The notes: a model not told the origin generated them from the letters alone. 64,000 bases of DNA from Candidatus Multivorans sp. (GCA_965224025.1 OZ245033.1:352001-416000), one strand, 5' to 3'. Shown: positions 3,930-18,807, counted from the first letter of the stretch. Program-made: numbers and translations.

Positions 3930-4778
3930 ATGGGACTGCTGGACGGCAAGGTGGCCATCGTTACCGGCGCGGGCAACGGCCTGGGCAGATCGCACGCCCT
4001 GCTCCTCGCCGCCGAGGGCGCACGGGTACTGGTCAACGACCCGGGCTGTGCGCGGGACGGTTCTGGCGAAAGCGACGTTGCGGACGAGGTCGTCGACCTG
4101 ATCCGCGCCGAAGGCGGAGATGCCGCCGCAAGCAAGGTCGCGGTCGGACCGTTCGAAGCCGCCGCGGAGCTCGTCCAGCAGGCGGTGGACACCTTCGGCG
4201 GAGTCGACGTCCTGGTCAACAACGCCGGCATCCTGCGCGATCGCACGGCCCTCAAGATGAGTGAAAAGGAGTGGGACTCCGTTCTCACCGTGCATCTGAG
4301 CGGCACCTTCTCCTGCCTGCAGGCCGCCGCCCGCGTGATGCGCGAGCAGGGCCGGGGTGGCCGGATCATCAACACCACGTCCGTTGCCGGCATGCAGGGC
4401 AACTTCGGCCAGAGCAACTACTCCGCCGCCAAGGCCGGCATCTACGCGGTGACGCGCACCGCCGCCATGGAACTCCAGCGCTACAAGATCACCGTCAACA
4501 CGATCTCGCCCACCGCCTACACGCGGATGACCGCGGACAATCCCGGCGTCACCGAGAGCTTCGGGGACCGCTATGGACCCCAACACGCCTCGCCCCTGGT
4601 CGTGTTTCTGGCCTCGGACCACGCCGCTCACATCACCGGTCAGACGCTGGGAGTCGAAGGCACGCACATCTTCGCCTACCGCATGATGAGCACCGTGGGC
4701 GTCAAGCAGTACGTGGGCGACGACCCCTGGAAGCCGGCCGCGATCCGGCACGTGATCGACCAGGTGATCGGCCACTGA
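3930..4778 (+). CDS. SDR oxidoreductase (3-hydroxyacyl-CoA dehydrogenase / MFE-2-like)
   Basis: GGAGG RBS; TGAGNGLG, NNAGILRD, GNFGQSNYSAAK. Confidence 0.92.
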   Translation: MGLLDGKVAIVTGAGNGLGRSHALLLAAEGARVLVNDPGCARDGSGESDVADEVVDLIRAEGGDAAASKVAVGPFEAAAELVQQAVDTFGGVDVLVNNAGILRDRTALKMSEKEWDSVLTVHLSGTFSCLQAAARVMREQGRGGRIINTTSVAGMQGNFGQSNYSAAKAGIYAVTRTAAMELQRYKITVNTISPTAYTRMTADNPGVTESFGDRYGPQHASPLVVFLASDHAAHITGQTLGVEGTHIFAYRMMSTVGVKQYVGDDPWKPAAIRHVIDQVIGH

Positions 4779-7393
4779 TGCCGCTCCCCAGCCGTGCCGC
4801 GGCCGGAGTGGTCGCGTCGCTGGCGGTGCTGTGGATCGGCTGCGGCCTCGGGTCCGAGTCGGTCCCGCGCGACAGGGATCTGCGCCACCGGGTCGAGAAG
4901 CTGATCGCGGACGTCGAGCGGAAGCCCACCTCGGCGGCCACCGTCTTTCGCCGGACCGACACGCTGTGGGACTGGGGCAACCGCTTCGCCATGGACGGCG
5001 GCGTTCTGCCGGCCGACCTGCCTCTGGCGGTGGCTCTGATTCGCTTCGCCGAGGCGGACGGCGGTGAAGTCGACCTGCCGCCGGCCATCGACCTGTACCT
5101 CGAGACGCACCTGGAGCGCTTCGACCAGTACGTGCGCGAACTCGCGTTGAAGGAGTCCGAGCCCCACGCTGTCGGCGAGCTGCGCATGTCGACGCCCGGC
5201 CCCCTGATCGCCGGCGCCACGGCCACCGTCGAGCAGACATACATCGTCGGGTCCCGCGGTCTCGCACCGGGCGGTGGATTCCTGGTCGGCAAGTCGGGAA
5301 CCGGCAACGAGACGCGACCCCAGAACCTGAATCCGGCCGGGGACAACTTCGTGTCGCTGCGCAGTTCCAACCCGGCGGCGACCTTCGAGCCCCTCCAGGT
5401 CGAATGGAACGGGGTCCATTCGCACGTCCCGGGCAAGCGACCGCTGCCCGGTTTTCGGCTTGAAGGAGCCGCGCTCGAGTCTGGCGAAACGGTCACGTTC
5501 ATCTACGGCGGCGAATCGAGCCGTCTCACGGTGCCGGCATTCAGCAACGACGAGTTGGTGCTTCCGGTCTACGTGGACATCGACGGCAGCGGGACCTACC
5601 TGACTCCCGCGCTGCCCGGAATCGAGGTCGTCGGCGAGCCGGAAGTCCACGCGGTTCGGCTCCTGGCGCCCTCGGTCGTTGCCGCGGGCGAGCCCTTCGA
5701 GATCACGGTGCGCAGCGAGGACCGGGCGATCAACCGGTCCAGCGGCGCGATTCCCGCCTACGAGGTCCTCCTGGAAGGCGACGCGATCGCCAGGATCGAG
5801 GCCGCGCACGGCGCCCTGTCGGTGGTGCAGGGACTGACGATCGAGACGCCCGGCGTCCATCGCCTCGAGGTGCGCTCAGTCGACGGCAACCTGAATGCCA
5901 CCAGCAACCCGATCCGCGTCGAGCTCGAGCCGGAGGTACGCATCTACTGGGGCGACACGCACGGCCACACCGGACTGGCCGAGGGCACCGGCTCGGCGCG
6001 GGCCTTCTTCGAGTACGCCAGCCGGGACGCCCGCCTCGACTTCGCCACGCTCTCGGAGCACGACATCTGGATGGACGACGGTGAGTGGCTCGACCTCCAG
6101 GAGTTGACCCGCGACTTCAGCGAAGACGGCCGCTTTGTCGGCATCCCGGGCTATGAATGGACGGCGTTCCGCAACCGCGGCGGGCACCACAACGTCTTCT
6201 TTCGGGATCCAGGAAGCCGTCGAGTTCCGGTTCAGGAAGCGACGCGGCTGCCCGATCTCTACCGGCAACTGCACGCCATCTACGAGCCCGACGAGGTCCT
6301 CGTCATTCCGCACGCCCACCGCGCCGCCGACTGGACTCGGAGCGATCCCGAACTGGAGAAGCTGGTCGAGCTGTACTCCGTTCACGGCAGTTTCGAGTGG
6401 TTCGCCAACCGTTACCTGCAGAGCGGCTTCGAACTCGGCTTCGTCGCCGCCTCGGATGACCACCACGCCAAGCCGGGACTCGCGCCGGGCCCCGTCTCGA
6501 GCGTTTCCCAGCCCGGCGGCCTGGCCGCTGTCCTGGCGCCGGAGCTCAGCCGAGACGCCCTCTTCTCGGCGCTGCGCAATCTCTCGTCCTACGCCACCTC
6601 GGGACAGCGCATGCTCCTCGAAGCGACCGTCAACGGAGCCGGAATGGGCACTCGGCAGGAGAGCGCGGAGCGGCGTGAGATCCGGGTCAACGTGAGCGGC
6701 ACGGCCCCGATCGACAGCATCGACGTGGTGCGCAACGGCGAGATCATTCTCAGCAGACGGTACGTGGCCGCACCGCTTGGCGCGCGCAGTTGGCTGCAGG
6801 TGTCCTTCGAGTCATCCTCCCAGGTATTCGGCCAGCAAGTCGACAACCCACGCGGCTACAGGCTCTGGGAGGGAACCCTCGAGGTGCGGGGAGCCCGGGT
6901 CCCGCAGGTGGTTCCGGCCGGCCTCGACAACCCCCTTCGCGACCAGGTCTCACGGCTCGATCCGGGCGCCGGTCACGGCGCCAGGTTCCGCATCCTGACT
7001 CGGGGCCGCGCCGACTCCTTCCTGGTCGAACTCGATGGCGCGGGCCCCCATACGCTGCTGAGTTTCCATCTGAACGAGAGCGCCGAGTCCGGTTTCGCGC
7101 CGGGAATCCGGCCCGCCGCCCGGATTCCCGCCGCCGACTTCGCCATCCGGCTGGGCGAACTCGAAGCTGGCCGCCTCGACCATGAGCTGCCGGTCGGGCC
7201 CCATCCGGATCGCCTGAGTCTGCAGGTGATCGATCCCGCCGCCGCCCTCGATCGGGAGTTCCAGTTCGTCGACCTCGACGGCGTCCGAGACGGCGACTAC
7301 TACTATGTCCGCGTGACCCAACTCGACGGCGGCCGTGCCTGGTCGAGCCCGTTCTGGGTCGGAAGTCGACCCGCCGGCAACGGAGGACAGTAA
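4778..7393 (+). CDS. DUF3604 / PHP-like metallohydrolase, paralogue of 1087-3796
   Basis: TGATG overlap with the SDR; YWGDTHGH, SEHD, GGHHNVFFR, SDDH, WSSPFWV; lipobox-like LWIGC. Confidence 0.85.
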   Translation: MPLPSRAAAGVVASLAVLWIGCGLGSESVPRDRDLRHRVEKLIADVERKPTSAATVFRRTDTLWDWGNRFAMDGGVLPADLPLAVALIRFAEADGGEVDLPPAIDLYLETHLERFDQYVRELALKESEPHAVGELRMSTPGPLIAGATATVEQTYIVGSRGLAPGGGFLVGKSGTGNETRPQNLNPAGDNFVSLRSSNPAATFEPLQVEWNGVHSHVPGKRPLPGFRLEGAALESGETVTFIYGGESSRLTVPAFSNDELVLPVYVDIDGSGTYLTPALPGIEVVGEPEVHAVRLLAPSVVAAGEPFEITVRSEDRAINRSSGAIPAYEVLLEGDAIARIEAAHGALSVVQGLTIETPGVHRLEVRSVDGNLNATSNPIRVELEPEVRIYWGDTHGHTGLAEGTGSARAFFEYASRDARLDFATLSEHDIWMDDGEWLDLQELTRDFSEDGRFVGIPGYEWTAFRNRGGHHNVFFRDPGSRRVPVQEATRLPDLYRQLHAIYEPDEVLVIPHAHRAADWTRSDPELEKLVELYSVHGSFEWFANRYLQSGFELGFVAASDDHHAKPGLAPGPVSSVSQPGGLAAVLAPELSRDALFSALRNLSSYATSGQRMLLEATVNGAGMGTRQESAERREIRVNVSGTAPIDSIDVVRNGEIILSRRYVAAPLGARSWLQVSFESSSQVFGQQVDNPRGYRLWEGTLEVRGARVPQVVPAGLDNPLRDQVSRLDPGAGHGARFRILTRGRADSFLVELDGAGPHTLLSFHLNESAESGFAPGIRPAARIPAADFAIRLGELEAGRLDHELPVGPHPDRLSLQVIDPAAALDREFQFVDLDGVRDGDYYYVRVTQLDGGRAWSSPFWVGSRPAGNGGQ

Positions 7394-7397
7394 GAAC

Positions 7398-8780
7398 TTG
7401 GCTGGAATCGTCACCTACGGCTCCTACGTGCCGTACAACCGGCTGGACCGCTCCGCGCTCGGCGGCCGCGGCGAACGGGCCGCGGCGAGCTACGACGAGA
7501 ACTCGGTGTCGATGGCCGTCGAAGCGGCGCGCGAAGCTCTGCGCGGCGACGCCCGAATCGACACGCTGTGCTTCGCGACGACCACCCCGGGCTACGCCGA
7601 GAAGCTCGACGCGGCCACGATCCACGCGGCGCTCGATATACCGGCCAACGTCGGAAGCCACGACCTCGGCGGGTCGGGTCGGGCAGGCCTCTCTTCCCTG
7701 GCGCTGGGAAACGACCTGGCGCTGGCCGGACGCCGGCCCCTCGTGTGCCTGAGCGAAGTGATGGTCGGCGCCCCCGGCGGCGCGCGCGAAGCGACTGCCG
7801 GCGACGGGGCCGCGGCCTTCACCTTCGGTCCCAGCTCCGAAGCTTGCGCCGAAGTCCTGGGCCGCGGCTCGACGACCGACGAGTTCATGGACGTCTGGCG
7901 TGCGCCGAACGAGCCCTTCGCCAATCAATGGGAAGAGCGTTTCGGGACCCGGATCATCGTTCCGCTCATGCTCGGCGCGCTTGAAGAGGCCCTCACTGGC
8001 GCCGGCGTCACCGCCGAGAGCCTGACCAGGGTCATCGTGGACAGCACGAACCCGCGCGCGGTTCGGAGCTTCGCCGCCCGAGCCGCTATTCCCGCCGACC
8101 GCTTCGCCGACGATCTTGCGGCCTCCGTCGGGCGAACCGGCACGGCGCACGCGGGCCTCGCCCTGGCGAACGCTCTCGACCAGGCCGCTCCCGGCGACCG
8201 GATCGCGGTCATCACCGGCATCGACGGCGCCGACGCGGTCATCTTCGAGGTGACCGACGCGATCGCGGCCAACCGCCCCGAGCGCAGCGTCGAACGCTGG
8301 GTCGAAGCCAAGCGCAATGATCTGGAATACAACACCTACCTCAAGTGGCGCGGCGTGCTCCCCTTCGAGAAGCCCCGGCGGCCGGACCCCAAGCGCCCGG
8401 CCGCGCCGCCCTCGTATCGGGCCGAGCGCTGGAAGTTCGCCTTCGTCGGATCGCGCTGCACGAACTGCGGCACGGCGAACCTGCCACCCCAGAGAGTGTG
8501 CGTCGAATGCGACTCGATCGACGAGACCGAGCCCGAGTCCTTCGCCGACAGCGCGGCACGGGTCGCCACCTACACACAGGACAATCTCGCCTACTCCCTG
8601 CAGCCGCCGGTGGTCGTCGCCATGCTCGACTTCGATCGAGGCGGCAGGCTACCCTGCCAACTCACTGACATCGACCCGCACAACGTACGGATCGGAGACC
8701 GGGTCGAGATGACGTTTCGCTGCCTGCACACCGCCGAGGGCATCCACAACTACTTCTGGAAAGCGAGACCGCGGCGGTGA
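7398..8780 (+). CDS. HMG-CoA-synthase-like domain fused to DUF35 Zn-ribbon/OB-fold
   Basis: TTG start; GIVTYGSYVP, DENSVSMAVEA, GDGAAA; C-terminal CTNC...CVEC and GDRVEMTFR...YFWKARP. Confidence 0.85.
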   Translation: MAGIVTYGSYVPYNRLDRSALGGRGERAAASYDENSVSMAVEAAREALRGDARIDTLCFATTTPGYAEKLDAATIHAALDIPANVGSHDLGGSGRAGLSSLALGNDLALAGRRPLVCLSEVMVGAPGGAREATAGDGAAAFTFGPSSEACAEVLGRGSTTDEFMDVWRAPNEPFANQWEERFGTRIIVPLMLGALEEALTGAGVTAESLTRVIVDSTNPRAVRSFAARAAIPADRFADDLAASVGRTGTAHAGLALANALDQAAPGDRIAVITGIDGADAVIFEVTDAIAANRPERSVERWVEAKRNDLEYNTYLKWRGVLPFEKPRRPDPKRPAAPPSYRAERWKFAFVGSRCTNCGTANLPPQRVCVECDSIDETEPESFADSAARVATYTQDNLAYSLQPPVVVAMLDFDRGGRLPCQLTDIDPHNVRIGDRVEMTFRCLHTAEGIHNYFWKARPRR

Positions 8781-8819
8781 AACCAGAAGGCCGGTCTCAG
8801 TGAAGAGAGGAAGGAACTC

Positions 8820-10001
8820 ATGCCTAGTCATGGAATCAAGGATCGGGTCGCCATCATTGGCATGGGATGCACCTCCTTCGGAGAGCATTGGGATCAGAGC
8901 ATCGGCGATCTTTCGCTGACAGCGTCGCAGGAAGCGGTCCGCTCGGCGGGGCTCGATCTCGCCGAGATCGACGCCTTCTGGCTCGGCAACGCCGGCACGC
9001 TCGCCTCCGGACTGCTCATCGCCGAGCCGCTCAAGATCCGCTACAAGCCTGTCACCCACGTCGAGAACTTCTGCGCCACCGGCAGCGAAGCGCTGCGCAA
9101 CGCCGCCTACGCGGTCGCCAGCGGCGCCTACGACATCGTCATGGCCCTCGGCGTCGAGAAGCTGAAGGACTCGGGTTACTCAGGACTGTTCGACCTGAAT
9201 CCGACGACCGACGGCACGGAACTCGAGATGACGCCGCCGGCGGCGTTCTCCATGATCGTGCCCGCCTACGCGGAGAAGTACGGCGTCGGCGAAGACACGC
9301 TGAAGGACGTGATGTCCCGAATCGCGCACAAGAATCACGCCAACGGGGCCAAGAACCCCAAGGCCCAGTTCCAGCGTGAGGTGCCGCTGGAGCGGATCAA
9401 ATCCGCTCCCCCCATCGCCGGCAAGCTCGGACTCTTCGACTGCTCGGGAGTGAGCGACGGCGCCGCTGCCGCGATCCTGTGCAGAGCGGAGGACGCCCAC
9501 CGCTACTGCGACGATCCGGTCATCCTCAAGGGAGTCGGATTCGTCGTCGGGCCGGCGGAAGGGGTCAAGAAACCGGACTACGACTTCACCACCTTCCCCG
9601 AAGTCGTGGCGAGCGCCGAGGACGCCTACCGGCAGGCCGGCATCACGGACCCGCGCGAAGAGATCAGCGTAGCGGAGGTGCATGACTGCTTTACACCGAC
9701 CGAGCTGGTGCTGATGGAGGATCTTGGATTCTCCGAACGCGGAAAGGCCTGGCAGGACTGCCTGGACGGCCGCTTCCAGCTCGACGGCCGCCAGCCGGTC
9801 AACCCCGACGGCGGCCTCAAGAGCTTCGGCCATCCCATCGGCGCCAGCGGTCTGCGCATGATGTACGAGATCTGGCTGCAGCTACGCGGTGAGGCAGGTG
9901 TGCGCCAGATCGCCGATGCCCGGATTGGACTGACCCACAACCTCGGCGGCCTCCCCGGCAACTGCGTGAGCTGCGTCTCCGTGGTCGGAAAGGCGGCGTG
10001 A
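8820..10001 (+). CDS. SCP2-type thiolase / acetyl-CoA acyltransferase
   Basis: VENFCATGSEA, SDGAAA, EVHDCF, GHPIGASG, HNLGG. Confidence 0.92.
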   Translation: MPSHGIKDRVAIIGMGCTSFGEHWDQSIGDLSLTASQEAVRSAGLDLAEIDAFWLGNAGTLASGLLIAEPLKIRYKPVTHVENFCATGSEALRNAAYAVASGAYDIVMALGVEKLKDSGYSGLFDLNPTTDGTELEMTPPAAFSMIVPAYAEKYGVGEDTLKDVMSRIAHKNHANGAKNPKAQFQREVPLERIKSAPPIAGKLGLFDCSGVSDGAAAAILCRAEDAHRYCDDPVILKGVGFVVGPAEGVKKPDYDFTTFPEVVASAEDAYRQAGITDPREEISVAEVHDCFTPTELVLMEDLGFSERGKAWQDCLDGRFQLDGRQPVNPDGGLKSFGHPIGASGLRMMYEIWLQLRGEAGVRQIADARIGLTHNLGGLPGNCVSCVSVVGKAA

Positions 10002-10073
10002 AGCGATCGGCGTCCACTGTGCTGGAGCCTGCACTGCTATAGTGGATTCACGATATCTTGAGGAGGATCCGTC

Positions 10074-10757
10074 ATGAACCGCTGGATCAAGATCGCCGCT
10101 TGCGGTGTCGTCGTCGCCGGTGTCCTGGGATGGGGCGGTTTCAAGACCTACCGCTTCCTGCTGGAGAGCGGGCTCATCCGGTTCAACGAGTACGACATTC
10201 GGACCGAGGGCATCCTTCAGGTCGGCGAGCCTGCTCCGGACCTGCCGTTGACTCTGGTCGGCGGCGGCGACGCGCGTCTCTCGGACCTGTGGGCCACCAA
10301 GCCTCTGGTCCTGGTCTTCGGCAGCTACACGTGACCGCCCTTCCGAGCCCGTGTGGCTCGGCTCGAGGAGATGAGGGAAGAGTGGAGTCCGGCCATCGAA
10401 TTCAGCTACGTCTACATCAAGGAGGCCCACCCGGAGGACGAGTGGCAGGCGCCCAGGAACGAAGCGACGAACCTGATCTTCAATCAGCCAAAGACGATGG
10501 TTGACCGCATGGATCTCGCCAGAGAGTTCGTCGAAGCGATGGATGTCAAGACACGGACCCTGGTGGACGACATCGCCAACACGGCCAACGCCTGCTATGC
10601 CGGCTGGCCCGAGCGCATCTACGTGATCGACAAGGGCGGCACGATCGCCTACAAGGGCGGCATGGGGCCCTTCAACTTCGATACGGACGAGCTCGAGGAG
10701 TTCCTCGCGGACAACTACGTCGGGCTGCGCACCGCGAGCGAAGCCACAGCCGGCTAG
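10074..10757 (+). CDS. Selenoprotein, iodothyronine-deiodinase-like thioredoxin fold (Sec at TGA 10332-10334)
   Basis: ORFs 10074-10334 and 10353-10757 are in one frame. Read-through gives PLVLVFGSYT-U-PPF, YIKEAHPED and YAGWPERIYVI; N-terminal TM segment. Confidence 0.9.
10343..10361 (+). promoter_or_regulatory. Candidate bacterial SECIS hairpin
   Basis: CCGAGCC-CGTGT-GGCTCGG, a perfect 7-bp stem with G-containing loop, starting 8 nt after the in-frame TGA. Confidence 0.7.
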
Positions 10758-10873
10758 CCATAGAGGCGTTTCGCGCGCTAGGAGTGTCCGCAGCGTTGTC
10801 GCTGCGCTGTCGCGCAGGGAACAGGCAGCGAGTAGCCAACGTTACAGCGGCGTCGTGGGTTCGTAGAGTTGGC

Positions 10874-11029
10874 CGCGCTGGGCAGCGAGGCCGCGCAGGC
10901 ACTGGTGTGTTGGCGCCCGACTAGGAGTTTGGCCCGGACCGTGATCGGCGCTCTGACGCTGGCGGCGCGGCTTGTGTCGCGACCCCGTATGCAAGATTGA
11001 GCTTTTCGCCGCGGTCTCTGCCCAGCGCG
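10874..11029 (+). ncRNA. Bridge RNA, structured core (transcript ends unknown)
   Basis: 12-bp perfect closing stem 10874-10885/11018-11029. Encloses GCCGCGCAGGC, CTAGGAG, CGGAC and ATGCAAG, which match the flanks and element ends. Confidence 0.8.
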
Positions 11030-11062
11030 ACGATTGGATTCCACATCTACGGGAGGCAGGGG

Positions 11063-12382
11063 ATGGCAAAGCGGAAGGCGGAGCGTCTGGAAGTCGTTCA
11101 CCCGGATTGCGCCGGTGTGGACGTAGGCAAGCGCAAGCACTACGTGGCGGTGGCCCCGTCGCGTTTCGAGCGGCCGGTGCGCAATTTCTCGTCGTTCACG
11201 GAGGACCTCGAGGCGATGGCCTCGTGGCTTCAGGAGTGCGGCGTGCGTGAGGTGGCGCTGGAGTCGACGGGGGTGTACTGGATTCCGGTGTTCGAGGTGC
11301 TGGACCGGGCGGGGTTCGAGGTGCATCTGGTGAATCCTCGGGCGACCAAGCAGGTGAGTGGCCGCAAGAGTGACGTTCTGGACTGCCAGTGGATCCGGCA
11401 GTTGATGAGCTACGGGCTCCTGCGCGGTGCGTTTCGCGCGCCGGACGAGTTGTGTCCGCTGCGTTCGTACACGCGGCAGCGCGCCCAGTTGGTCCGCGAC
11501 CGCAGCCGCGCGGTGCAGCACATCCAGAAGGCTCTGGTGCAGATGAACGTGCAGTTGGACAACGTGCTGAGCGACATCATGGGCAAGACCGGCCAGTTGA
11601 TCGTGCGCGCGATCGTCGCCGGCGAGCGCGACGGCGCGGCGCTGGCCCGTCACCGGGACGGTCGCTGCAAGGCTGGTCCGGCTGTGATCGCGGCGAGTTT
11701 GCAAGGCAACTGGCGAGACGAGCACCTGTTCGCTCTGGGCCAGGCGCTGGCCCGCTACGACATGCTGCAAGGCCAGATCGAGATGTGCGAGAAGCGCATC
11801 GACGCCGAGCTCGACGGCCTGGCCCAAGACGGCGTCGAGGACGCGCCGCCGCCCGGTTCGAAGGCGCGCGAGCGCGCCCTGCGGAAGCGGCTGCATCGCA
11901 TGCTCGGCGTGGACCTGGTCGCCATTCCGACGGTCGGCGTCGAAACCGCGCTGACCTTCGCCGCTGAGATCGGCCCGGACCTGTCCCGGTTTCCCTCGCA
12001 GGGCAACTTCTGCTCGTGGCTGTGTCTGGCTCCACCGACCAACATCAGCGGCGACAAACGGCTGAACGGCCCTCCCGTGAAGCAGACCAACCGGGTCGGC
12101 CAGACGCTGCGCCAAGCCGCCACCACAGCCCGCAACAGCAAGACCGCCATCGGAGCCTCTCACCGCCGGCGTCTCCAGCACATGGAGAAGGCGAAGGCCA
12201 TCAAGGCCACCGCTCATCAACTCGGCCGACTGATCTACGCCATGCTGACCCACGGCGAAGAGTACGTCGAGCGCGACCTCGCCGAAATGGAGGCCGTCCG
12301 ACGCGAACGACAAATCAGAAACCTGCAGCGTCAGGCCCGCCGCCTGAATCTGGCTCTCGTGCCGACCGAACATGCCGCCTGA
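11063..12382 (+). CDS. IS110 family transposase / recombinase
   Basis: AGVDVG, ALESTGVYW, KSDVLD (DEDD RuvC-like); NISG serine motif; RBS upstream of ATG 11063. Confidence 0.95.
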   Translation: MAKRKAERLEVVHPDCAGVDVGKRKHYVAVAPSRFERPVRNFSSFTEDLEAMASWLQECGVREVALESTGVYWIPVFEVLDRAGFEVHLVNPRATKQVSGRKSDVLDCQWIRQLMSYGLLRGAFRAPDELCPLRSYTRQRAQLVRDRSRAVQHIQKALVQMNVQLDNVLSDIMGKTGQLIVRAIVAGERDGAALARHRDGRCKAGPAVIAASLQGNWRDEHLFALGQALARYDMLQGQIEMCEKRIDAELDGLAQDGVEDAPPPGSKARERALRKRLHRMLGVDLVAIPTVGVETALTFAAEIGPDLSRFPSQGNFCSWLCLAPPTNISGDKRLNGPPVKQTNRVGQTLRQAATTARNSKTAIGASHRRRLQHMEKAKAIKATAHQLGRLIYAMLTHGEEYVERDLAEMEAVRRERQIRNLQRQARRLNLALVPTEHAA

Positions 12383-12460
12383 ATCGCGCAACCTGCGCTG
12401 CCAACAAGGAACCCCTACCCGTTTGTTCCATGCAAGCCTGCGCGGCAAAACGATCTGACT

Positions 12461-12493
12461 TGGGAACGCGGGCGTCTCGCCCGCATCCGGCGC
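12461..12493 (+). repeat. REP-like hairpin
   Basis: TGGGAACGCGGGCGTCTCGCCCGC; near copy of 1100-1133. Confidence 0.75.
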
Positions 12494-12524
12494 CAAGCGC
12501 CGGCCTCCCGGGAGTTCTGTCGCC

Positions 12525-13331
12525 CTAGCCGGATTGGCCGGCCGGGTTGTTGACCCGATAGGTCAGGCGCGCCGCCGCGCGCCGCGTCAGGATGCGCATC
12601 AGGAAGATGACGGCGCGGTTGCGCCAGCCCGGTACGACCGAGGGGGCGCGACCGAGCCCTCGCAGGCTGGCGTCCACCACCTGCTCGGGGCTCGTCCAAC
12701 CGGTCATCGGCTCGGGCGCCCCCATGCCGGCCTTCTTCTGGTACTCGGTCGGCGTGAATCCCGGCGACAGCACGATGACGTCGATTCCGTGCTCCGAGAG
12801 CTCCGCCCAGAGCGCTTCGCCGAACATCAGGTTGAACGCCTTCGACGCGCCGTAGACGGCCTCGAACGCCACCGGCTGGTAGGCCGCCGTGCTCGACAGG
12901 AAGATCAGCGCGCCGCGACCGCGCTCGACGAGCCGCGGAGCGAGAATCGTCGCCAGCCCGACGGCCGCCCGGTTGTTGACCTCGACGATCTGAAGTTGAA
13001 GCTCGGGATCCTGCTCGACAAAGGGCCCGTAGGTGCCGAAGCCGGCGTTCGACACCAGCATGCCGACCTCGATCCCGAGATCGTCGACGGCCTTGAAGAC
13101 GAGCCGCGGGCCGTCGCGCTCCCCAAGGTCCTGGGGAACGACATGGACCGTCACACCCGAGGCCGAGCGCAATTCCCGCGCCAACTTCTCGAGCCGGTCG
13201 GTGCGCCGTGCGACAAGCACCAGTTCCATGCCCTCATCGGCAAGCCGCCGCGCGTAGGCCTCCCCGATACCGCTGGAGGCGCCCGTAATCAGGGCGGCGC
13301 CGCCGTAGCGTTGCGGGATTCGCGGGCTCAT
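12525..13331 (-). CDS. SDR oxidoreductase
   Basis: TGASSGIG, SNAGFG, YGASK. Confidence 0.92.
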   Translation of the reverse strand: MSPRIPQRYGGAALITGASSGIGEAYARRLADEGMELVLVARRTDRLEKLARELRSASGVTVHVVPQDLGERDGPRLVFKAVDDLGIEVGMLVSNAGFGTYGPFVEQDPELQLQIVEVNNRAAVGLATILAPRLVERGRGALIFLSSTAAYQPVAFEAVYGASKAFNLMFGEALWAELSEHGIDVIVLSPGFTPTEYQKKAGMGAPEPMTGWTSPEQVVDASLRGLGRAPSVVPGWRNRAVIFLMRILTRRAAARLTYRVNNPAGQSG

Positions 13332-16677: not shown

Positions 16678-18807
16678 ATGAAGTGCTCAAGCCGCCTGAC
16701 CTGCGCCCGGCTCGGGGTGCTGCTCCTCGGTGCCGGCGTCGGCGCCCAGGAAACCGGTTTCGAGCCGGTCACCCAGGAGATGCTGCGCAACCCGGAACCG
16801 GGCCAGTGGCTCCACTGGCGGGGGACGCAGAACGCATGGGGCTACAGCCCGCTCGACCAGATCACCACCGAGAACGTCGGGCAGCTTCAATTGGTCTGGG
16901 CGTGGGCGATGGACGACACCGGCCCGCAGGAGGCGGCGCCCCTCATCCACGGCGGCGTCATGTACGTGCCGAATCCGGGCAACGTCGTCCAGGCCCTGCA
17001 CGCGGCGAACGGCGACCTGATCTGGGAGTACCGCCCGGAACAGGTCGGCGACGGTAGCGGCGCCTTCGGCCGCGGGGTGCAGAAGAACATCGCGATCTAC
17101 GGCGACCGGATCTTCGGCGCCAGTTCGCGAGCAACGATCTTCGCCCTCGACGCCCGCAACGGGAAGCTGATCTGGGAGACCCGGACCGCCGACACGAGCC
17201 TCGGCTACCGCTACTCCGCCGGCCCGATCGTCGCCAACGGCAAGCTGGTCACCGGCATCACCGGCTGCGGCCGCTACAAGGACGACGTCTGCTTCATCAC
17301 CGGCCACGATCCGGCGACCGGCGAGGAACTCTGGCGCACCTCCACGATCGCTCGTCCCGGAGAGCCGGGCGGCGACACCTGGGGCGACCTGCCCTTGCGC
17401 TTCCGCGCCGGCAGCGACGCCTGGATCGCCGGCAGCTACGACCCGGACCTGAACATCGTCTACTGGGCCACGTCCCAAGCCAAGCCCTGGGCCCGGTCCG
17501 TGCGCGGCACGGACGGCGACGCGCTGTACACGAACTCGAGCCTCGCGCTCGACCCCGACACCGGGAAACTGCTCTGGTACTACCAGTACCTCCCCGGCGA
17601 GACCCACGACATGGACGAGGTATTCGAGTCGCTCCTCATCGATGTCGACGGCCGCAAGCAGCTCTTCAAGATGGGCAAGCTCGGCATCCTCTGGCAGCTC
17701 GACCGGGAAACCGGCGAGTTCCTGAACGCCACCGACATCGGCTACCAGAACCTCGTCGACGTGGACCGGGAAACGGGCGAGGTGACCTACCGCCCGGAGC
17801 TGATCCCGGAGATCGGCGTCGAGATCAACATGTGCCCGAGCACGTCCGGCTTCAAGGGCTGGCGGGCGATGTCCTACAACCCGAACACCCGGGCGCTCTA
17901 CATCCCGGTCACCCTGAACTGCGAGCTGGCGACGTTCGGCCCGGTCGAGCGCGTCCTCGGCGGCGGCGGTGCGGGGCCGGTCAAGCGGATCAACACCCTG
18001 CACCCGTACTCGGACGGCAACCTCGGCGAGCTGCTCGTGATCGACGTCAAGGAGGGGGACATCATGTGGCGGCACCGCACGGAGTCGCCGATCAACACCG
18101 CCGCCCTGTCTACCGGGGGAGGCGTGGTCTTCGCCGGCGACTACGACCGCTACGTGTACGCCTACGAAGCGCGGACCGGCGCGATCCTCTGGCAGACGCG
18201 GCTACCCACGTCCGCCCAGGGATTCCCGGTGACCTACCTCGCCGGCGGTCGCCAGTACGTGGCGATTCCGGTTGGAACCGGCGGCGCCAGTTGGGCGACG
18301 ATGGTGCCGAGGGATCTCATCCCCCACATTCGCCGTCCGACCAACGGCAACTCGATCCACGTATTCGCGCTGCCGGCGGACATGCCGGTTGAGACCGCCC
18401 GGACCCGCACCACGACGGCGGACCGCGACACCACGGAGGCGACCGCCGCCTCCCGGACCGTCTGGGACGGCGTCTACACCGCCGAGCAGGCCGAGCGCGG
18501 CCTCGGGCCGTACCTTGCGAACTGCGCGACCTGCCACGGCGAGGACCTCGGCGGAGGCAGCAACTCGCCGGGCCTGACCGGCGTCAGCTTCCAGTTCCTG
18601 TGGGGCGACAAGACCCTCCACGAGCTGTTCGAGGCAATCCGCACGACGATGCCGACCGACAACCCGGCCAGCTTGCCCCGGGACACCTACCTCGACATCC
18701 TGACCTACATGCTGCAGGTCAACGAGTTCCCAACGGGCGACGCCGAACTCGACGTCGATCCCGCGGCCCTCGGCAACGTCCTGATCACCGGCAAGCCCGA
18801 CGCGTAA
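16678..18807 (+). CDS. PQQ-dependent dehydrogenase with C-terminal cytochrome c
   Basis: YSPLDQIT, Trp-docking beta-propeller repeats, GRQYVAI; CATCH haem motif. Confidence 0.9.
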   Translation: MKCSSRLTCARLGVLLLGAGVGAQETGFEPVTQEMLRNPEPGQWLHWRGTQNAWGYSPLDQITTENVGQLQLVWAWAMDDTGPQEAAPLIHGGVMYVPNPGNVVQALHAANGDLIWEYRPEQVGDGSGAFGRGVQKNIAIYGDRIFGASSRATIFALDARNGKLIWETRTADTSLGYRYSAGPIVANGKLVTGITGCGRYKDDVCFITGHDPATGEELWRTSTIARPGEPGGDTWGDLPLRFRAGSDAWIAGSYDPDLNIVYWATSQAKPWARSVRGTDGDALYTNSSLALDPDTGKLLWYYQYLPGETHDMDEVFESLLIDVDGRKQLFKMGKLGILWQLDRETGEFLNATDIGYQNLVDVDRETGEVTYRPELIPEIGVEINMCPSTSGFKGWRAMSYNPNTRALYIPVTLNCELATFGPVERVLGGGGAGPVKRINTLHPYSDGNLGELLVIDVKEGDIMWRHRTESPINTAALSTGGGVVFAGDYDRYVYAYEARTGAILWQTRLPTSAQGFPVTYLAGGRQYVAIPVGTGGASWATMVPRDLIPHIRRPTNGNSIHVFALPADMPVETARTRTTTADRDTTEATAASRTVWDGVYTAEQAERGLGPYLANCATCHGEDLGGGSNSPGLTGVSFQFLWGDKTLHELFEAIRTTMPTDNPASLPRDTYLDILTYMLQVNEFPTGDAELDVDPAALGNVLITGKPDA

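Follow-up and report, generated by a model that had tools for sequence, protein, structure and literature searches.

A bacterial deiodinase-like family was published in 2005 from the Sargasso Sea, where four selenocysteine (Sec, U) and six Cys sequences were reported together with a bacterial SECIS element and a suggested redox function (Zhang, Fomenko and Gladyshev; PMC1088965). The GOS survey of 2008 counted 22 Sec and 21 Cys deiodinase-like sequences, with no motif in its table (PMC2398784), and the family also appears in reviews from 2022 and 2026, under the motif UxxC (PMC9312934, PMC13188914). In our literature searches no functional study of a bacterial member came up, and full-text searches combining deiodinase with Acidobacteria or Acidobacteriota returned nothing relevant.

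For the vertebrate enzymes, Ser127, Thr129, Tyr157, Glu160 and His162 of Dio2 are described as forming a hydrogen-bond relay with His182, Arg275 of Dio3 and Lys241 of Dio2 are the proposed clamp for the thyronine carboxylate, and Phe258 of Dio3 adjoins the active site (PMC11592359). In human DIO1, the proximal Cys and Sec form a selenenyl-sulfide, the species that is reduced by glutathione (PMC9141512).

Here we describe a relative of these proteins from Candidatus Multivorans sp., encoded in a stretch of 64,000 nucleotides (GCA_965224025.1 OZ245033.1:352001-416000), referred to below as the window, whose first letter is position 1. We put the probability at roughly 85% that 10074-10757 is one gene for a protein of the bacterial deiodinase-like selenoprotein family, in which UGA is read as Sec and for whose membrane-anchored product we propose a redox cycle. 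The protein belongs to the family published in 2005 and is not a new find.

Gene layout

The features of the locus, all on the plus strand, are as follows.

10060-10066, +: Shine-Dalgarno-like GAGGAGG, 7 nt upstream of the ATG, by direct reading of the sequence
10074-10757, +: deiodinase-like selenoprotein gene, 227 codons including UGA as Sec87, translated with TGA=U
10092-10142, +: N-terminal hydrophobic helix, residues 7-23, IAACGVVVAGVLGWGGF, after MNRWIK, a predicted signal anchor (hydropathy scan and model)
10212-10709, +: predicted thioredoxin-fold, deiodinase-type catalytic domain, residues 47-212 (Pfam envelope and AlphaFold model)
10332-10334, +: UGA Sec codon (U87) within S84-Y85-T86-U87-P88-P89-F90; TGA in relatives, Cys in Cys forms
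10343-10361, +: SECIS-like hairpin with a 7-bp stem and a 5-nt apical loop, CGUGU, containing G (folding and covariation)
10413-10430, +: YIKEAH, residues 114-119 (Y114, E117, H119), bordering the deiodinase-specific insertion; columns without variation in the 50-sequence alignment
10593-10595, +: Cys174, sole Cys of the catalytic domain and candidate resolving thiol, from the distribution of Cys in relatives
10605-10616, +: WPER, residues 178-181, with W178, P179 and R181 invariant in the alignment

The gene starts with ATG at 10074 and ends with TAG at 10755-10757, giving a product of 227 residues, and under translation table 11 the same interval yields two ORFs of 86 and 134 aa. An earlier, sequence-only reading of this DNA had pointed to an in-frame TGA within FGSYT*PPF, a hairpin 8 nt downstream of it and the motifs YIKEAH and WPER. 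All of these are present: the frame around the TGA is open to the terminal TAG, the hairpin consists of the stem CCGAGCC (10343-10349), the loop CGTGT and the stem GGCTCGG (10355-10361), and both motifs lie where the feature list places them. Its expectation that gene callers would split the gene also agrees with the databases, in which 113 of the 120 homologues listed are 124-167 aa long and comprise the post-TGA part only; as the gene is thus mis-annotated almost everywhere, selenium use by soil Acidobacteriota is under-counted.

Protein family, fold and catalytic residues

The product matches the Pfam family PF00837 (T4_deiodinase) with 115.9 bits against a gathering cut-off of 27 (E 2.3e-33), residues 47-212 corresponding to profile positions 72-234 of 237, and a genome-wide profile search recovers a PF00837 match with one TGA inside. 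AhpC-TSA (PF00578) has a cut-off of 26 and scores 28.9 bits, far under the deiodinase score, and the AhpC/TSA, Redoxin and thioredoxin-like families all score far below T4_deiodinase. A sequence search of solved structures gave strong matches only to mouse Dio3 (4tr3, E 4.5e-25) and Dio2 (9h48, E 4.1e-23), with no bacterial member among the matches. An AlphaFold model computed from a 50-sequence alignment (mean pLDDT 92.5, pTM 0.81) has a helix at residues 2-31, and its best fold matches are again Dio2 (9h48, TM 0.83 to the target) and Dio3 (4tr3, TM 0.77), the next-best being extracytoplasmic ResA/TlpA-type oxidoreductases and BCP or 1-Cys peroxiredoxins. The proposal that the gene encodes a deiodinase homologue is therefore supported both by the profile match and by Dio2 and Dio3 being the best matches in sequence and in fold.

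Fourteen residues, S84, T86, U87, P88, P89, F90, R91, Y114, E117, H119, W124, W178, P179 and R181, are invariant or nearly so in the 50 sequences. Five of the Dio2 relay positions are kept as S84, T86, Y114, E117 and H119, whereas the counterpart of Dio2 His182 and Dio3 His219 is Pro139; the substrate-clamp column (Dio3 Arg275, Dio2 Lys241) holds Met197 and varies in the family (M, T, Q, P, V, K). Since the relay residues are kept while these two positions are changed, the core of the chemistry appears to be retained and the thyronine-binding part not. P179 aligns with Dio3 Phe258. Two residues before Sec, the best 80 of 95 related loci have Y in 53 cases, F in 24 and C in three. The sequence-only reading had stressed Tyr in place of Cys at this site, and Tyr is indeed correct, but the position is not a defining one, because vertebrate DIO2 has Ala there (PMC9141512).

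Conservation of the in-frame UGA

Scanning one genome per species returned 95 relatives, of which the best 80 were kept (loci L022-L101); they come mostly from Acidobacteriota (Ca. Multivorans, Thermoanaerobaculia, Vicinamibacteria, Holophagales), with some from Planctomycetota. Aligning homologues for Cys or Sec at this site, a check suggested at the outset, gave an in-frame TGA at the Sec codon in 80/80 loci (best 80 of 95), within FGS[Y/F/C]T*PPF and at 42-94% protein identity, and Cys in full-length homologues. The nearest relative is 94% identical to the selenoprotein of the window. In an even sample of the phylum, 34 of 301 genomes had PF00837 above the cut-off; there were 36 matches, 32 of them with exactly one TGA, and three of the PF00837 rows in this sample come from unpublished genomes (G024, G049, G152).

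Cys forms are found as well. Seven homologues of 196-225 aa, among the 120 database matches listed, have Cys in the U column, and a second genome scan yielded one true Cys-form locus, L102, with TGT (Cys) in this column, two further loci from that scan (L103 and L104) having proved to be Sec forms.

The codon is likewise TGA, and not TGC or TGT, in contigs of other sequencing runs, a substitution that would have spoken against Sec. Run X1, which may be the source sample, has a contig that spans 10316-10579 with zero differences, and contigs of close relatives from metatranscriptomic libraries bridge the TGA (X19, 10261-10697; X20, 10069-10468) with 10332-10334 unchanged. All four runs compared with the gene consist of contigs, and DNA carry-over in the RNA libraries is possible; being contigs, they show presence and not the level of expression.

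Two of the related loci look damaged: L061 (at about 4230-4250) has a stop six codons ahead of the TGA, and L071 diverges at its C-terminal end and finishes early after a DDIDNTA motif.

From these observations, together with the hairpin described below, we conclude that the apparent stop is almost certainly decoded as Sec, giving a single membrane-anchored bacterial relative of the deiodinases.

A selected hairpin downstream of the UGA

Bacterial SECIS elements are described as stem-loops just downstream of the UGA that carry a G in their small apical loop (PMC1088965). We folded a stretch of 36 nt whose start lies 6 nt beyond the first base of the TGA, using the other 36-nt windows of the same genes as controls. 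The mean over 81 genes was -13.8 kcal/mol, as against -8.9 in the control windows, and the post-TGA stretch fell within the best 10% of its own gene for 44 of the 81 and within the best 25% for 65. For the gene described here the value was -16.5 kcal/mol, and 2.2% of its own control windows were as stable. A wider stretch of 76 nt showed no extra stability against dinucleotide shuffles (z = +0.94, 172/200 shuffles at least as stable), and an Rfam scan of 10250-10450 found no SECIS family, its sole match being a chance miRNA (E 3.7).

Several sequence versions of the hairpin occur among the relatives. For the covariation analysis, sequences were grouped by eye according to hairpin register, a grouping that leans towards structure, and 73 of the 81 were counted; omitted were L024-L026 (identical to L023), L030 and L071 (hairpin includes the UGA) and L040, L045 and L063 (a third version). 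The largest group comprises 57 sequences; its pair 15-30 links two Arg codons at their third positions and is GC in 39, CG in five, AU in two, UA in one, GU in two and other in six, while the group that contains the window's gene (16 sequences) has changes on both sides at three pairs. Paired cells make up 87-88% in both groups, compared with 15-68% when the partner is slid, and the covariation score was reached by 0/500 shuffles in either group. The G in the apical loop is invariant in both alignment groups, and in the RNA-library contigs of both close relatives 10346 A>G is accompanied by 10358 T>C, turning an A-U pair into G-C. The hairpin is thus under selection and covaries partly at synonymous third positions of Arg codons.

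In alignment A3 (57 loci), 18 nt within columns 13-31 after the TGA, CGGCGCTCGGTCGAGCGC, are nearly invariant, third codon positions included; this near-invariance in relatives that are only 38-46% identical in protein is a sign of RNA-level selection. The Cys form L102 has no such hairpin (-3.1 kcal/mol, 95% of control windows as stable), an anecdote with n=1. When the UGA at 10332 is read as Sec, the mRNA hairpin at 10343-10361 would be the binding site for SelB with its Sec-tRNA(Sec).

Membrane anchor and topology

The protein had also been called membrane-anchored, and its hydrophobic N-terminal segment has counterparts in the relatives: a hydropathy scan found a hydrophobic 17-mer ending 56-84 residues before U in 78/80 loci (best 80 of 95), the other two (L035 and L061) being loci that could not be judged. 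The N-flank of the segment has a median length of 4.5 residues, with 0.48 K/R per residue and hardly any acidic residues. One planctomycete copy (L098) has a lipobox-like LTGC, the Cys forms begin with signal-peptide-like segments, and the ResA/TlpA-type proteins among the next-best fold matches are extracytoplasmic, which likewise speaks for an external domain.

A short basic N-terminus followed by one hydrophobic helix has the shape of a signal anchor, which places the domain outside; on these sequence features, the catalytic domain probably lies on the periplasmic side. Counting charges does not decide the topology, however: K/R are more numerous in the 15 residues that follow the helix (3.2 vs 2.3 before it, in absolute number), and N-in is favoured by the net-charge rule for only 44 of 76 proteins. 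An anchor of a similar kind is present in vertebrate Dio1 and Dio2, whose domain is cytosolic.

Genomic neighbourhood

Upstream of the selenoprotein gene, 7335-8780 encodes a fusion of a ketoacyl-synthase/HMG-CoA-synthase-like domain with a zinc ribbon and OB fold of ChsH2 type (DUF35 type), and an SCP-x-type thiolase gene lies between the two, at 8820-10001. We take the arrangement at 7335-10001 to resemble thiolase/DUF35 complexes. It had been suggested that the selenoprotein follows an acyl-CoA catabolic operon; the thiolase neighbourhood is, however, shared by just seven of the 80 loci (best 80 of 95), all of the same genus, and the link did not hold beyond this genus-level synteny. We also weighed a role for the gene in acyl-CoA catabolism and discarded it.

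When every ORF lying up to 3.5 kb from the gene was clustered across the 80 loci (best 80 of 95), the two largest clusters of neighbours turned out to be antisense or alternative-frame ORFs without a Pfam match. The only recurrent real neighbour was a convergent DUF2127 membrane protein, in 21/80 loci (best 80 of 95), and no conserved partner or function-hinting neighbour was found within 3.5 kb in these 80 loci (best 80 of 95). A promoter and terminator scan of 9900-11000 found none.

On the 3' side, the window carries an inserted-looking segment that contains a transposase ORF.

10758-12531, strand not assigned: segment absent from the closest relative, directly 3' of the stop and outside the gene (blastn against L022)
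10997-12382, +: IS110-family transposase ORF (Pfam DEDD_Tnp_IS110 and Transposase_20)

The selenoprotein gene of the closest relative lies only 27 nt away from a convergent SDR gene. Elsewhere in the window, 4271-7393 encodes a 1040-aa protein whose sole match is a short DUF3604 stretch, and 16678-18807 a PQQ-dependent dehydrogenase with a C-terminal cytochrome c domain.

A single extra Cys and the proposed catalytic cycle

Apart from Sec, the catalytic domain contains exactly one Cys in 78 of 81 proteins (that of the window and the best 80 of 95). Its site differs by clade, lying in the insertion loop in 57 loci, in C-Y-A-G-W-P in 18 loci and the window (Cys174), and at U-2 in three loci, and the three positions never co-occur. 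By analogy, this one-extra-Cys pattern fits a selenenyl-sulfide recycling as in Dio1. The Cys-form homologues have a Cys of their own near the position of the vertebrate distal Cys.

We propose the following cycle. A single hydrophobic helix with a short basic N-terminus would anchor the protein in the cytoplasmic membrane, followed by the thioredoxin-fold domain with its deiodinase insertion. Sec87, at the start of helix alpha-1, would act as the nucleophile, with S84 and T86 at its flanks and Y114, E117, H119 and W124 behind it. The substrate would oxidise Sec87 to Se-OH or Se-X, upon which Cys174, the single conserved Cys of this clade, may resolve the oxidised Sec87 to a selenenyl-sulfide, and an external thiol system would then reduce the Sec87-Cys174 bond. 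Elsewhere, the genome codes for a DsbD_TM protein (of the DsbD/CcdA membrane type), whose presence makes a periplasmic reductant no more than plausible.

Redox enzyme or dehalogenase

For the predicted enzyme, we consider a peroxide or thiol-disulfide redox role somewhat more likely than dehalogenation, and we do not expect thyronines to be substrates of the bacterial protein. The competing idea is a Sec-dependent reductive dehalogenase of halogenated phenolics outside the cytoplasm, in which, as in the iodothyronine deiodinases, Sec87 would take up X+ while the relay protonates the ring. It draws on S84, T86, Y114, E117, H119 and W124, which are invariant from bacteria to mouse and specific to deiodinases, not to peroxiredoxins, and on the very strong preference for Sec among the relatives (80/80 loci, best 80 of 95, and 32 of 36 profile matches), given that exchanging Sec for Cys lowers Dio activity about 1000-fold (PMC11592359). 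The loss of the relay His to Pro139 and of the clamp to the variable Met197, the natural occurrence of Cys forms, the lack of conserved dehalogenation or aromatic-catabolism genes near the gene and the literature search that found no experimental work on bacterial members all weigh against it, and we regard it as unlikely.

A bolder extension is a long shot of the same order. The anchored Sec enzymes, which are common in Acidobacteriota and Planctomycetota, would then make up a third, cofactor-free class of reductive dehalogenases beside the corrinoid and flavin types, stripping I or Br from natural halophenols on the external side of the cytoplasmic membrane by a chemistry ancestral to thyroid-hormone deiodination, with the clade-shifting Cys recycling the selenenyl halide.

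Selenocysteine machinery of the host genome

Whether the UGA can be read in this particular strain depends on its Sec machinery, for which the sequence-only reading had named selA, selB, selC and selD as the genes to look for. The genome (5.14 Mb, 3 contigs) encodes a tRNA-Sec (74.8 bits; called tRNA-SeC with anticodon tca by ARAGORN) and matches the profiles of selA (434 bits), selB (308 bits) and selD (257 bits). While tRNA-Sec, selA and selD are intact, selB, although present, carries an apparent frameshift in the assembly. Its N-terminal part (profile positions 2-355) and C-terminal part (461-578) lie in different frames: one base is missing at the junction relative to 4/4 aligned relatives of the genus, and the gap puts the C-terminal part into the other frame. 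The open frame is 525 aa here, compared with 675-812 aa in 12/12 other genus genomes sampled. The gene is located at G000:C1:1491043-1492985 (locus L010, minus strand), with the junction near L010 1400-1420.

The selD match corresponds to the C-terminal 300 residues of a 772-aa ORF (G000:C1:4860227-4862545; locus L018, ORF 214-2532), and SelD therefore appears to be fused to a large N-terminal domain.

The gap in selB could reflect either a mistake in the assembly or a genuine loss, and a genuine deletion would abolish Sec insertion in the strain. The selenoprotein gene would in that case be a silent relic here, with SelB cut before its mRNA-binding C-terminal part and the UGA at 10332 ending translation after 86 residues. 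The missing base and the shortened frame, both out of line with the rest of the genus, are what this explanation has in its favour. Set against them are the intact selA, selD and tRNA-Sec and the state of the selenoprotein gene itself, with its UGA and hairpin unbroken and 94% identity to the nearest relative. Moreover, a single-base gap is a common consensus error of long-read assemblies. Taken together, we think it quite improbable that the gene has fallen silent, and keep to the reading of a UGA decoded as Sec.

That the TGA is a true stop, leaving two small genes or a pseudogene, is hardly credible: the downstream half is what gene callers report on its own, but the in-frame TGA is kept in 80/80 loci (best 80 of 95) of two phyla, the protein is conserved on both flanks of it, the downstream hairpin covaries, homologues have Cys in the same column and the modelled deiodinase fold would run continuously across it.

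Comparison with known systems

With the bacterial deiodinase-like family, the protein shares Pfam00837, a catalytic in-frame UGA with Cys in some homologues, and a SECIS hairpin directly downstream whose small apical loop has a G. The motif differs from the UxxC tabulated in the reviews, since it is U-P-P-F here and in 80/80 loci (best 80 of 95), with no Cys at +3. The 2005 and GOS members came from marine plankton, whereas the present host is a MAG lineage of soil- or sediment-type Acidobacteriota. The membrane anchor and the single migrating Cys described here find no mention in the accessible parts of the family papers. The protein is one further member of a catalogued family, and existing knowledge is unchanged by it.

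NCBIfam NF038285 (deiodinase_rel, planctomycete) is a longer relative, with which the catalytic domain aligns at model positions 177-340 of 347. The score of 167.8 bits is under the cut-off of 250, and nothing in the protein corresponds to the first 176 positions, the N-terminal half of the model; as the match covers the C-terminal half only and stays below the cut-off, the protein falls outside that longer subfamily.

ResA/TlpA/DsbE, Etrx2 and the BCP/1-Cys peroxiredoxins resemble the model in fold (TM 0.74-0.83 to the target), and many of them are membrane-anchored or lipoproteins. Unlike ResA/TlpA/DsbE and the peroxiredoxins, however, the protein has no CxxC, possesses the deiodinase-type insertion, carries Sec for Cys and is only 12-22% identical to them. 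The peroxidatic Cys of peroxiredoxins lies in the context PxxxTxxC, whereas here Ser stands at -3 and Thr at -1 from Sec.

With Dio1-3 (4TR3, 9H48), the protein shares a single N-terminal membrane helix, a thioredoxin/peroxiredoxin-like fold with the Dio insertion and the motifs S-x-T-U-P-P-F and Y-I-x-E-A-H-P-x-D-x-W, at 30-31% identity over about 180 columns. Described 20 years ago, this family forms the bacterial counterpart to the thyroid-hormone deiodinases, and the conserved relay, the strong preference for Sec and the one-extra-Cys pattern ease the design of a biochemical test. The differences from Dio1-3 concern decoding, the active site and the thiols: the SECIS element is located in the coding region here and in the 3' UTR in vertebrates; the second relay His is replaced by Pro139 and the Arg/Lys of the carboxylate clamp by Met197; and the proximal Cys (U-2) is absent, the Cys of this protein being at U+87, compared with U+69 to U+76 for the distal Cys in the vertebrate enzymes as described (PMC9141512).
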